A DNA stretch of 20,196 bases from a virus (taxonomy: Duplodnaviria; Heunggongvirae; Uroviricota; Caudoviricetes): positions 1-20,196 of IMG/VR virus record IMGVR_UViG_2563366948_000002; one strand, 5' to 3'. Positions 10,675 to 19,262 of the stretch are shown piece after piece; position 1 is the first letter of the stretch, and every line of letters begins with the position of its first letter. The notes under the pieces were generated by a model, which saw nothing but the letters and a program-made list of their open reading frames with translations, was not told the origin of the DNA and did not search any database. The translations under genes were made by a program, and so were the position numbers.

Positions 10675-11367
10675 ATGACAGTGAAAGCAAAGCGTTTTCG
10701 CATCGGGGTGGAAGGTGCCACCACCGACGGACGCGAAATCCAGCGTGAATGGCTGGAACAGATGGCAGCCAGCTATAACCCGGCGGTGTATACCGCGCTG
10801 ATTAACCTTGAGCACATCAAGTCTTATCTGCCGGACAGCACCTTTAACCGCTACGGCAAGGTGACGGCGCTGTTTGCTGAAGAAATCACGGAAGGTCCGC
10901 TGGCAGGCAAGATGGCGCTGTATGCTGACGTTGAGCCAACGGAGTCCCTGGTGGAACTGGTGAAAAAAGGCCAGAAATTATTCACCTCTATGGAAGTCAG
11001 CCCGAAGTTCGCTGATACGGGCAAAGCCTACCTGGTCGGCCTGGCTGCCACTGATGACCCTGCCAGTCTGGGCACTGAAATGCTGACATTCAGCGCCAGT
11101 GCAGCCCATAAACCGCTTAACCCGTCGCTGGCCCGCGACATTATCGAAGGTATCCGCGCCAAAATGCGCAGCCTGGTCAGTCAGGGCTATCTCATTGGTG
11201 GTGATTGCTGGCTGGATGAGTCGGTGAACGACAAAGACACGCTGAAAGCCGGAAAACTCACCATCGACTACGACTACACGCCAGTGCCGCCACTTGAAAA
11301 CCTGATGCTGCGTCAGCGCATCACCGATCAGTACCTGGTGAATTTCGCCAGCCAGGTCAGCGCGTAA
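10675..11367 (+). pseudogene. Chimeric ORF: N-terminal part of capsid scaffold gpO fused to a C-terminal fragment assigned by synteny to tail sheath FI
   Basis: First about 150 aa resemble gpO (FRIGVEGxTxDGR...NLEH...[17 protein letters not shown]...NPLN). The ORF then ends 10 nt before FII, the position normally held by FI. N, M, L, lysis, baseplate and fibre genes are absent between O and FII. Confidence 0.6.
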
Positions 11368-15935: not shown

Positions 15936-17032
15936 ATTTCAGCTCTGAACTGCTTAACAAAGGCAACAAAACTCCGGCATTCAGCATCAGTATTGAGGGT
16001 AAGGATATCACCACTGTGCTGGATAACCGCCTGATGAGTCTGACGCTGACGGACAATCGGGGCTTTGAAGCGGACCAGCTTGATCTGGAGCTGGACGACG
16101 CCGACGGAAAAATCGTGCTGCCGCGCCGTGGTGCGGTCATTACGCTGGCGTTGGGCTGGAAGGGGCAGTCGCTTTTCCCGAAAGGAGCATTCACGGTGGA
16201 CGAGATTGAACACACTGGCGCACCGGACCGCCTGACTATCCGGGCGCGAAGTGCTGATTTTCGTGAAACCCTGAATATCCGCCGTGAAAAATCGTGGCAC
16301 AAGACCACCGTTGGGGAAGTGGTGAAGGAAATAGCTGCGCGGCACAAACTGAAGATGGCATTGGGTGAAGACCTGTCGGATAAACCTGTGGAGCATATAG
16401 ACCAGACCAATGAGAGTGACGGCAGTTTTCTGATGCGGCTGGCGCGCCAGTACGGTGCTATTGCGTCGGTGAAAAATGACAATCTGTTATTCATCCGGCA
16501 GGGACAGGGTAAAAGCGCCAGCGGTAAACCACTACCGGTTATCACTATCACACGTAAGGACGGCGACAGTCACCGCTTTATCCTGGCAGATCGCGGAGCC
16601 TACACGGGCGTAATTGCCAGCTGGTTGCATACCCGCGAACCCGCGAAGAAAGAAAGCACCACGGTGAAGCGTAAGCGCAGGACTAAGAAGCAGAAGAAAG
16701 AGCCGGAAGCGAAGCAGGGCGATTACCTGGTGGGTACAGATGAAAACGTGCTGGTACTTAATCGCACCTATGCCAACCGGAGCAACGCCGAACGGGCGGC
16801 GAAAATGCAGTGGGAACGCCTGCAACGTGGCGTTGCGTCATTCTCGCTACAACTGGCAGAAGGTCGGGCGGATCTCTACACGGAAATGCCAGTGAAAGTC
16901 AGAGGCTTTAAACAGCCGATAGATGATGCGGAATGGACTATTACCACCCTGACGCATACTGTCAATCCGGATAACGGTTTTACGACCAGTCTGGAGCTTG
17001 AAGTGAAGATTAATGATTTCGAAATGGAATGA
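15932..17032 (+). CDS. D: Tail protein gpD (late control gene D family)
   Basis: 366 aa, probable GTG start overlapping the U stop (GTGA); last late gene before ogr, as in P2. Confidence 0.85.
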   Translation: MNFSSELLNKGNKTPAFSISIEGKDITTVLDNRLMSLTLTDNRGFEADQLDLELDDADGKIVLPRRGAVITLALGWKGQSLFPKGAFTVDEIEHTGAPDRLTIRARSADFRETLNIRREKSWHKTTVGEVVKEIAARHKLKMALGEDLSDKPVEHIDQTNESDGSFLMRLARQYGAIASVKNDNLLFIRQGQGKSASGKPLPVITITRKDGDSHRFILADRGAYTGVIASWLHTREPAKKESTTVKRKRRTKKQKKEPEAKQGDYLVGTDENVLVLNRTYANRSNAERAAKMQWERLQRGVASFSLQLAEGRADLYTEMPVKVRGFKQPIDDAEWTITTLTHTVNPDNGFTTSLELEVKINDFEME

Positions 17033-17122
17033 TTCTTCGTAATAGAGAACTTTTAAGTTTTCAAAATGGAATAATGCGGTATCATTATTGTGAATTTAGC
17101 AAAAATGGGGAGAGCTCGAAAA

Positions 17123-17341
17123 ATGATGATTTGCCCACTGTGTGGAAGTGCCGCCCATACTCGCAGCAGTTTTCAGGTATCTTCATTGACCAAAGAGCGT
17201 TACAACCAGTGCCAGAACATTAACTGCAGCCATACTTTTGTTACCCATGAAACTTTTGTTCGTTCGATTGCAACGCCAAAAGAGTCAAATCCGGTTCAGC
17301 CGCATCCAATGAAATCAGGACAGGTGGCGCTCTCTCTTTGA
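17123..17341 (+). CDS. ogr: Late gene transcriptional activator Ogr (zinc-finger)
   Basis: MMICPLCGSAAHTRSS...ERYNQCQNINCSHTF...PHPMKSGQ: C-x2-C-x22-C-x4-C zinc finger; 72 aa from ATG 17123 with GGGGAGAG SD (ORF track starts further upstream at 17090). Confidence 0.85.
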   Translation: MMICPLCGSAAHTRSSFQVSSLTKERYNQCQNINCSHTFVTHETFVRSIATPKESNPVQPHPMKSGQVALSL

Positions 17342-17421
17342 CTCTGCCGCCAATTTGTCGCCATCGTTAAAAAACAGTGCTTCTAACATCATGATTTTAA
17401 ACGGCATAAATTTCAGGCAAC

Positions 17422-17464
17422 AAAAAACCCATCAACCTTGAACCGAAATGGCGGGGTTGATGGG
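17422..17464 (-). terminator. Rho-independent terminator on the minus strand, downstream of ybjL
   Basis: On minus strand: CCCATCAACC-17 nt loop-GGTTGATGGG followed by TTTTTT (plus-strand arms 17428-17437 and 17455-17464, A-run 17422-17427). Confidence 0.55.
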
Positions 17465-17576
17465 CTCCACAAAATGGGGACATCAAAGAAAAGCAGTGGC
17501 ACTAATTAAGACTGATGCCCTGCGGAAAAGTTCTGCGGTTGTGCAAAAAAATTTCATTTTCAGGGCAACTTCAGTT

Positions 17577-19262
17577 TTATCCTAATCCTGGCCATACCAT
17601 GACGATGATTGTCCCTGCCAGCGTCAGCAGGACGTTGGCGATTGCATAGGTGCCCGCATAGCCCAGCGCCGGGATGTTACTGCGAGCTGTATCACTGATG
17701 ATCTCCATTGCCGGCGCGCAGGTACGTGCGCCCATCATTGCGCCGAACAACAGCGCGCGGTTCATTCGCAATACATAAGCACCGAACAAGAAACAGATAA
17801 CCACGGGCACCAGACTGACAATCAATCCGGCAATCAACATCTGACCGCCAATCGCGCCCAGGCCGTTATTAATACCGCTACCGGCGCTCAGACCAACGCC
17901 TGCCATAAACACCATCAAGCCGAACTCTTTCACCATGCTTAATGCACCCTGCGGAATGTAACCGAAGGTCGGGTGGTTAGCACGCATAAAGCCCAGCATA
18001 ATTCCGGCGAATAACAACCCGGCAGCGTTCCCCATGCCGAAACTGAATGTGCTGAACTGGAAGGTGATCATCCCGATCATCAGCCCAATAACAAAGAAGG
18101 CGCAGAATGCCAGCAGGTCAGTGACCTGGCTGTGAATCGAGATAAAGCCGATGCGATCGGCGATGGTTTTTACGCGGCGGGCATCGCCGCTGACTTGTAA
18201 AACGTCACCTTTGTTAAGCACGACGTTGTCATCTATCGGCATCTCAATCTGGCTACGAATGACGCGGTTAAGGAAGCAACCGTGATCGGTCAACTTCAGT
18301 TGTGCGAGACGTTTACCTACAGCGTTATGGTTTTTAACGACCACTTCTTCAGTGACGATACGCATGTCGAGAAGGTCACGATCGAAAACTTCTTTACCGT
18401 TACGGAAGCTGGGATCGAGTCGGGCATGGGCGTCGGGATAGCCTACCAACGCTATTTCATCGCCCATTTGTAGCACGGCATCACCGTCTGGATTTGCCAG
18501 AATCCCGTTACGTCGAATACGTTCAATGTAGCAGCCGGTTTGTCGATAAATACCCAGTTCACGCAGATTTTTGCCGTCGGTCCAGGCCACCAGTTCCGGG
18601 CCGACGCGATAGGCGCGGATCACCGGTAAATAAACCTTACGGTTGGCATCAGTGTCCAGGCCACGTTCGCGGGCGATTTGCTGGGCGCTGGTCTGTAAGT
18701 CCTGATGCTGCAATTTCGGCAAGTAACGCGCACCAACAATCAAACTCACCAGACCGATTAAATAGGTTAAGGCATACCCGAGGCTCAGATTATCCAGTGC
18801 CAGTGAGAGCTGCCTGCTTTCCATGCCGGAATGACGCAGTGTATCGCCAGCACCGACCAGAACCGGTGTCGACGTCATAGAGCCTGCTAACATACCGGCC
18901 GTCAGGCCAATATCCCAGCCAAACAGCTTACCTAACCCTAAGGCGATCACCAGCGCACTGCCAACCATCACCAGTGCTAACATTAGGTAATTTTTCCCAT
19001 CGCGAAAAAAAATGGAAAAAAAGTTCGGTCCGGCTTCGACCCCGACGCAGAAAATAAACAGCATAAAGCCAAGATTAAGCGCATCGGTGTTAATGCTGAA
19101 ATGTTGTTGGCCTAATAACAGCGATACGACTAAAACGCCAATGGAATTACCCAGTTGGATCGAACCAAGTCGTAACTTTCCGAGACATAGCCCAAGCGCG
19201 AGGACCACAAATAATAACAGAATGTAATTCCCATTTAACAATTCGGCGACGTTTATATTCAC
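17577..19262 (-). CDS. ybjL: Putative transport protein YbjL (two TrkA-C domains flanked by membrane domains)
   Basis: 561-aa polytopic membrane protein; matches E. coli YbjL by recall; GC and codon style differ from the cargo modules. Confidence 0.85.

Follow-up and report, generated by a model that had tools for sequence, protein, structure and literature searches.

Evidence that a 186/P2-like prophage remnant ends in the 3' end of the small RNA gene rybB

We argue that the 235 bp between the phage gene ogr and the host gene ybjL hold the right attachment site (attR) of a 186/P2-like (Peduoviridae) prophage, integrated into the 3' end of rybB by a tyrosine integrase. We put the probability of this reading at about 0.95. 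The stretch of DNA analysed, which we call the window, is the 20,196 nucleotides of virus record IMGVR_UViG_2563366948_000002, and all positions refer to it unless another locus is named. A first-pass annotation of the window had placed the right junction between the stop of ogr at 17341 and the end of ybjL, on the minus strand, at 17577. Both gene ends are confirmed by the open reading frames, and the junction does lie between them. The same annotation described the junction as lying in the tail of ybjL, and this description does not hold: a complete rybB sits between ybjL and the junction, and the core of the attachment site is the last 14 nt of rybB. The junction rests on direct comparison of sites and not on a statistical argument, so chance is not a concern.

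Comparison of occupied and empty sites

The main evidence comes from genomes with and without the prophage. We searched 5,426 complete E. coli genomes by megablast with positions 17000-18000 of the window. Of these genomes, 1,115 have an occupied site and match the full query, from D and ogr into ybjL; in other words, ogr adjoins rybB/ybjL in about 20% of complete E. coli genomes. The prophage-free genomes (about 4,300) align only from window position 17406 (query position 407) rightwards. In K-12 TG1 the homology breaks 3 bp past the stop codon of rcdA. A comparison with empty sites had been suggested as a check on the first-pass interval, and together with the att alignment it places the junction inside that interval.

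The att alignment is six-way and contains attB of K-12, attL of E. coli EC931, attP of Klebsiella phage KP12, attL and attR of Klebsiella phage 4LV2017, and the attR of this window. It gives an att core of 27 bp, of which the 14 bp on the rybB side are identical in attB, attP, attL and attR (Table 1). The interval is thus neither all host nor all phage, since it contains a core that the four kinds of site share. The attB site reads ...GGGTAGTAG ATAAGTTTTAGAT AACAAAAAACCCAT CAACCTTG... and the attP site reads ...AAACGGC ATAAATTTCAGAC AACAAAAAACCCAT TTATGTAAAC.... In attL the left flank comes from attB and the right flank from attP; in attR, the site in this window, the left flank comes from attP and the right one from attB, which is a reciprocal exchange. 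All four sites agree over these 14 bp, which means that the two strand exchanges must lie in 17419-17432.

Table 1. Features of the right prophage junction, its flanking genes and the prophage left end; positions are those of the window.
Feature	Position	Strand	Sequence or basis
Tyrosine integrase gene int, 350 aa, prophage left end	1-1053	-	Stop codon at 1-3; PHROG 1
Candidate P' arm-type Int sites, tandem 11-mers	22-43	+	TGCCGCCACTT, TGTCGCCACTT; within the 3' end of int
ogr (late-gene activator), last prophage gene	17123-17341	+	NCBIfam NF007241 ogr/Delta, E = 2e-28
Phage P arm of attR	17342-17405		In attP, missing from the empty site (alignments, KP12 attP)
Candidate P arm-type Int sites, tandem 11-mers	17345-17366	+	TGCCGCCAATT, TGTCGCCATCG; just after ogr; analogy with annotated P2/186 attP
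Weak IHF-like motif	17384-17396	-	AATCATGATGTTA, one mismatch to WATCAANNNNTTR; between arm sites and core, as in P2
Extended att core, 27 bp	17406-17432		ATAAATTTCAGGCAACAAAAAACCCAT; alignments
14-bp identity core	17419-17432		AACAAAAAACCCAT; att alignment and Rfam alignment
rybB small RNA gene	17419-17500	-	RF00110 at 17419-17497; intact
rybB terminator hairpin and U-run (U6)	about 17422-17466	-	Fold -24.1 kcal/mol, z = -2.6
Predicted sigma-E-type promoter of rybB	17506-17533	-	GAACTT 17533-17528, 16-nt spacer, TCTTAA 17511-17506
ybjL (aspartate:alanine antiporter), host gene	17577-19262	-	ORF; uninterrupted

The left 13 bp of the core (17406-17418) are present here in the phage version. K-12 attB differs from it at 17410, 17414, 17417 and 17418, so that 9 of the 13 positions match. 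This raises the question of how long the recognised site is. It could be the full 27-bp block, with the E. coli attB a tolerated imperfect version that matches at 23 of 27 positions, and we would give this slightly less than an even chance. The partial similarity does extend 13 bp to the left of the identity (ATAAgTTTtAGat versus ATAAaTTTcAGgc), and the annotated core of P2 is 27 bp long as well. The identity is 19 bp long in Klebsiella, several other genera share TTCAGGCAAC, and two cryptic-clade Escherichia species have an attL whose host side is phage-type over the 27 bp. Against this, the four E. coli mismatches segregate cleanly: they are host-type in attL and phage-type in attR, which confines the exchange to the 14 bp.

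The distribution of the site outside E. coli bears on the same question. The phage-side junction AAAAAACCCATTTATGTAAACGGG is found in the species-representative genomes of 13 Enterobacteriaceae species. Its carriers include Raoultella, Klebsiella michiganensis, Citrobacter freundii, Enterobacter asburiae, Leclercia and Lelliottia, and also Buttiauxella, Scandinavium, Silvania, Dryocola and two cryptic Escherichia species. Several of the species with the junction have a host side that reads ...TTCAGGCAAC, which is nearer to attP than that of E. coli K-12. Identity extends over 14 bp in E. coli and over 19 bp in Klebsiella, and in the cryptic Escherichia it reaches 27 bp or more. In attL of the cryptic-clade Escherichia (loci L013 and L018) the host side is the phage-type ATAAATTTCAGGC, versus ATAAGTTTTAGAT in K-12. 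Either all 27 bp of attB are the same as in attP in these species, or the left half of the core has undergone conversion.

The other sites of the set come from relatives. When the whole 20-kb window was sought in complete E. coli genomes, none covered more than 78% of it, and attL was therefore taken from another genome, that of E. coli EC931, whose sequence agrees with positions 1-2500 of the window at 100% identity. There the 27-bp core lies at 2900-2926 of locus L004, and its 14-bp part lies 74-87 bp past the int stop and 16 bp past the rcdA stop. EC931 thus repeats the 14-bp core to the left of int, in agreement with the first-pass view that the left junction lies beyond int and off the window. 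By this comparison, which covers the identical positions 1-2500 only, attL of the present prophage would lie about 74-100 bp to the left of the int stop, outside the window. For attP, Klebsiella phage KP12 carries a contiguous ogr-attP-int that joins the P and P' arms around the core. Klebsiella phage 4LV2017 has an attL and an attR annotated in GenBank on the same sequence as this att.

These sites also bear on whether the junction is a site-specific att at all. A decaying prophage could end in a scar left by deletion or illegitimate recombination, and this one is heavily degraded, with two internal deletions that created gene fusions. We nevertheless consider a scar vanishingly unlikely here, because a base-identical junction adjoins full-length prophages in both E. 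coli and Klebsiella, the reciprocal attL exists, and the attP of a free phage joins both arms.

The target gene rybB

The identity of the target rests on an Rfam scan. RF00110 matches the minus strand at 17419-17497 over model positions 1-79 of 79, with 105.3 bits against a gathering cutoff of 40 (E = 2e-22). The copy is identical in sequence and score to the RybB of K-12, where the gene lies at 3014-3092 of locus L002 and the host order is rcdA (ybjK) - rybB - ybjL. The RybB model ends on exactly the base at which the 14-bp core has its left edge, and read on the minus strand the core is AUGGGUUUUUUGUU, the last 14 nt of rybB. Rfam finds no match to RybB in attL or attP, so only this 14-nt fragment of rybB is duplicated. 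A target among the tRNA and tmRNA genes was also considered and rejected, ARAGORN having found no such gene in the window.

The start of rybB is probably the G at 17500, given that RybB begins 5'-GCCAC. Upstream of it are the GAACTT and TCTTAA elements that we presume, from the established consensus, to be of sigma-E type. This predicted promoter is wholly on the host side and is unaffected by the insertion. RybB is an RpoE-dependent, Hfq-binding repressor of outer-membrane-protein mRNAs (PMC5736990).

The first-pass annotation had seen a hairpin at 17422-17464 and called it the terminator of ybjL. The hairpin is real (-24.1 kcal/mol), but it is the terminator of rybB, since the full gene, with its 105.3-bit match, occupies 17419-17497; by the same argument, the phage integrates in the 3' end of rybB. 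A consensus terminator scan of 16900-17800 found nothing. The RybB terminator is invisible to such a scan because its loop is longer than the 8-nt limit, so folding and Rfam were used instead.

It could still be argued that the phage aims at the ybjL mRNA, namely its 3' tail and terminator, with the hairpin no more than ybjL's own terminator and no small RNA gene involved. After all, ybjL is the nearest protein gene on the minus strand, and there is no other terminator-like site between 17577 and 17500. We find this very unlikely indeed. A full-length rybB (105 bits versus 40) and its own sigma-E-type promoter fill 17419-17533, the core ends where the RybB model ends, and 144 bp separate the ybjL stop codon from the core. 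Published descriptions, which we discuss below, also name rybB as the target. We therefore keep to rybB as the target gene. Because no other terminator was seen between 17577 and 17500, read-through from ybjL may, to judge from the sequence, also stop at the rybB hairpin.

The integrase, its arms and the state of the prophage

The integrase is a P2/186-family tyrosine recombinase by sequence. It matches PHROG 1 with E = 8e-75, is 56% identical to the Int of 186 and 35% identical to that of P2, and its R...HxxR...Y region aligns with both. It is about 54-56% identical to the integrases of the SopEPhi/RE2010 type and more than 99% identical to those of Escherichia phage vB_EcoM-813R9 and several Klebsiella phages. 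At the other end of the prophage, the RefSeq annotation of an identical locus agrees with our assignment of ogr.

Both arms carry a repeated motif. The 18-bp sequence GCCGCCAnTTTGTCGCCA occurs exactly at 23-40 and at 17346-17363 in direct orientation, with 0.01 chance matches expected, and it also occurs in the P' arm of loci from eight other species. Each arm copy consists of two units 11 bp apart (TGCCGCCAYTT and TGTCGCCAYYK; overall YGYCGCCAYTT). The 11-mers TGCCGCCACTT and TGTCGCCACTT fit the 186 consensus YAYCGCCAYTY at 10 of 11 positions each, and the P arm pair TGCCGCCAATT and TGTCGCCATCG conforms to it as well. By analogy with 186 these motifs would be the binding sites of Int. The span from arm to arm is 205 bp in the attP of KP12, versus 204 bp in the annotated attP of P2. 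A search with the IHF consensus gave matches in both arms, but no more of them than chance would give (6 found, 6.2 expected); the IHF-like motif in Table 1 is suggestive by its position only. The stretch between core and int contains two 18-nt direct repeats 19 bp apart. On the int side of attL and attP there is a hairpin of -9 kcal/mol followed by the shared U-run; the hairpin is not more stable than shuffled sequences (z = -0.9 to -1.3).

We propose the following mechanism. The phage attP carries a copy of the last 14 nt of rybB, in which the end of the terminator stem (5 nt) is followed by the U-run and GUU. While in the phage, these 14 nt would double as the 3' half and U-run of the small hairpin downstream of int, and on the minus strand of attP and attL that hairpin would be expected to terminate the int operon. 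By homology with 186 and P2, Int would bridge the paired arm-type sites, one pair per arm, to the core, and a bending protein would bind in the P arm. An excisionase of the Apl/Cox type probably binds the 19-bp-spaced repeats between core and int. Strand exchange within the 14-bp identity yields both junctions. In attL the rcdA stop codon is followed by the host-type left half of the core, and then come the 14 bp, the P' arm and int. In attR the phage P arm is followed by the core and the body of rybB, so rybB stays intact and unchanged.

The prophage itself is a remnant of about 17.5 kb, versus about 33.5 kb in a full-length relative, and has two internal deletions; its junctions are canonical. 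One deletion, at 2604/2605, lies in the plus-strand ORF 2392-2688, where the N-terminus of cII (Phage_CP76) is fused to a DinI-like C-terminus. It removes the replication genes, the region from fil to A of full-length relatives being missing. The second, of about 10.8 kb, lies at a short overlap at about 11108-11117 in the plus-strand ORF 10675-11367, which begins as the N-terminus of gpO, the capsid scaffold, and ends as the C-terminus of the tail sheath FI. With this deletion the genes for capsid, lysis, baseplate and tail fibre are lost, and the prophage therefore cannot make virions. What remains is int, cI, Q, P, FII-D and ogr, together with a cargo region that includes DarT/DarG.

This cargo lies between the lysogeny module and Q. 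DarT (193 aa) and DarG (323 aa, with a macro domain) form a toxin-antitoxin anti-phage system at 3156-4713 on the plus strand, with PADLOC E-values of 2e-36 and 3e-80 and Pfam matches to DarT and Macro. Beside it in the cargo hotspot, at 5435-7662 on the plus strand, are three tightly packed or overlapping ORFs of 371, 148 and 221 aa. Searches of Pfam, NCBIfam, PADLOC and the PDB sequences gave nothing for them, their only matches being PHROGs of unknown function (12777, 11490 and 9664), and at the DNA level they were found in no phage record. They are candidates for an uncharacterised defence or accessory operon.

Consequences and comparison with known systems

The insertion changes what lies beyond the end of rybB. 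It swaps the DNA directly 3' of the RybB U-run from GUU-AUCUAAAAC to GUU-GCCUGAAAU, and ogr and the late operon read head-on, antisense, towards rybB. P2 and 186 have an annotated terminator straight after ogr/B, whereas none is recognisable here: neither a terminator scan nor reading of the sequence revealed a terminator-like hairpin with a U-run on the plus strand of 17342-17420. Late transcription may thus run antisense into rybB. From the changed DNA 3' of the U-run and the antisense late operon without a recognisable terminator, one could argue that lysogeny affects RybB, and that induction or altered termination modulates the sigma-E/RybB envelope-stress response. We think this quite improbable.

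The insertion site has been described before. According to the genome paper of E. coli W, the P2-type prophages Rybb*W, Rybb*B (with retron Ec86) and Rybb*Cr (of strain Crooks) are inserted in the 'rybB ncRNA' (PMC3032704); a derivative of E. coli B matches window positions 17000-18000 at 99%. In Klebsiella, the island Kpn38RybB was described as lying 'precisely within the gene for ... RybB' (PMC4048246). At hotspot #29 of a survey of E. coli defence islands, only Felsduovirus prophages were found within rybB, in 109 genomes (PMC10121019), and the prophage NC-MV of strain NC101 sits 'between ybjL and rcdA' (PMC12803456). In E. coli HS, removal of a 'P2' prophage between rcdA and a point '77 bp downstream of ogr' recreated attB for de novo lysogeny (bioRxiv 10.1101/2024.06.12.598711). 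Applied here, that boundary is 17341 + 77 = 17418, the base just before the 14-bp core, and so agrees with ours. Literature searches with 'ybjK' and 'P2-like' gave nothing, and searches with 'rybB' gave the published site. The base-level anatomy presented here, namely the 14/27-bp core and the arm motifs, is a refinement and not a discovery, and the mapping leaves current understanding unchanged.

Its value is more practical. Annotators should name the 3' end of rybB as the target instead of ybjL, and they can set the limit of the prophage to the base at 17419-17432. It is a clean case of a phage that uses a small RNA gene in the way that others use tRNA and tmRNA genes: the 3' end is regenerated and the host keeps its sigma-E stress regulator. 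The site is filled in about one fifth of complete E. coli genomes and carries variable anti-phage cargo, which is DarTG in this prophage. Precise boundaries at so commonly occupied a site should therefore aid surveys of defence islands.

The first-pass annotation did not recognise the locus as a classical P2 or 186 site, and rightly so. The P2 attachment system is rejected because its core, AAAAAATAAGCCCGTGTAAGGGAGATT, is unrelated and its Int is only 35% identical. The 186 system is rejected because 186 uses the 3' end of the tRNA-Ile gene ileY, whereas the target here is rybB and the window is without a tRNA gene. At 56% identity to the Int of 186, the present integrase is related to it and has a different specificity.

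The likeness to 186 is still considerable. Besides the related integrases, the two share a lysogeny module of the CI/Apl/CII type, tandem arm motifs of the CGCCAYTY type flanking the core on either side, and the habit of inserting into the 3' end of a structured RNA gene and regenerating it. They differ in that 186 targets a tRNA gene and the present prophage a small RNA gene, and in that the shared block is 36 bp in 186 versus 14 bp (up to 27) here. They also differ in orientation. Here the fragment of the RNA gene in attP is directed towards ogr, and the intact rybB therefore comes to lie beside ogr and not beside int. There is also no orf69 between attP and int here. Next to attP, 186 has a 'terminator of lysogenic operon' (positions 425-458 of locus L022) that begins GGCAACAAAAAGGCC and resembles the core here, CAGGCAACAAAAAACCC (window 17414-17432). 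It is tempting to speculate that the att core of this lineage derives from, or doubles as, a terminator of the int operon.

With P2 the prophage shares the order of attP: ogr, the Int sites of the P arm, a bend site, a 27-bp core, an excisionase region, and a P' arm that overlaps the 3' end of int. In P2 and 186, Cox and Apl bind between the core and int, which is where the 18-nt repeats lie here. The arm motif differs, being of the TGTGGAC type in P2 versus the CGCCA type here. Phages of the P2-like Fels-2/SopEPhi type, whose integrases are about 54-56% identical to this one, integrate at the 3' end of ssrA (tmRNA), and so differ from the present prophage in their RNA-gene target and in core sequence. 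A small RNA target is itself not peculiar to this lineage. P2-type prophages also use the small RNA gene cyaR/ryeE (PMC3032704, PMC3603311), and ryeB has been reported as a phage target alongside ryeE/cyaR (PMC3603311).

The closest comparison is with the published P2-like/Felsduovirus prophages of the rybB site. They occupy the same locus, rcdA-rybB-ybjL, with ogr on the rybB side and int on the rcdA side, as here. Nothing essential separates the present prophage from them; what is particular to it is that it is a 17.5-kb deletion remnant and that it carries DarTG rather than, for example, retron Ec86.
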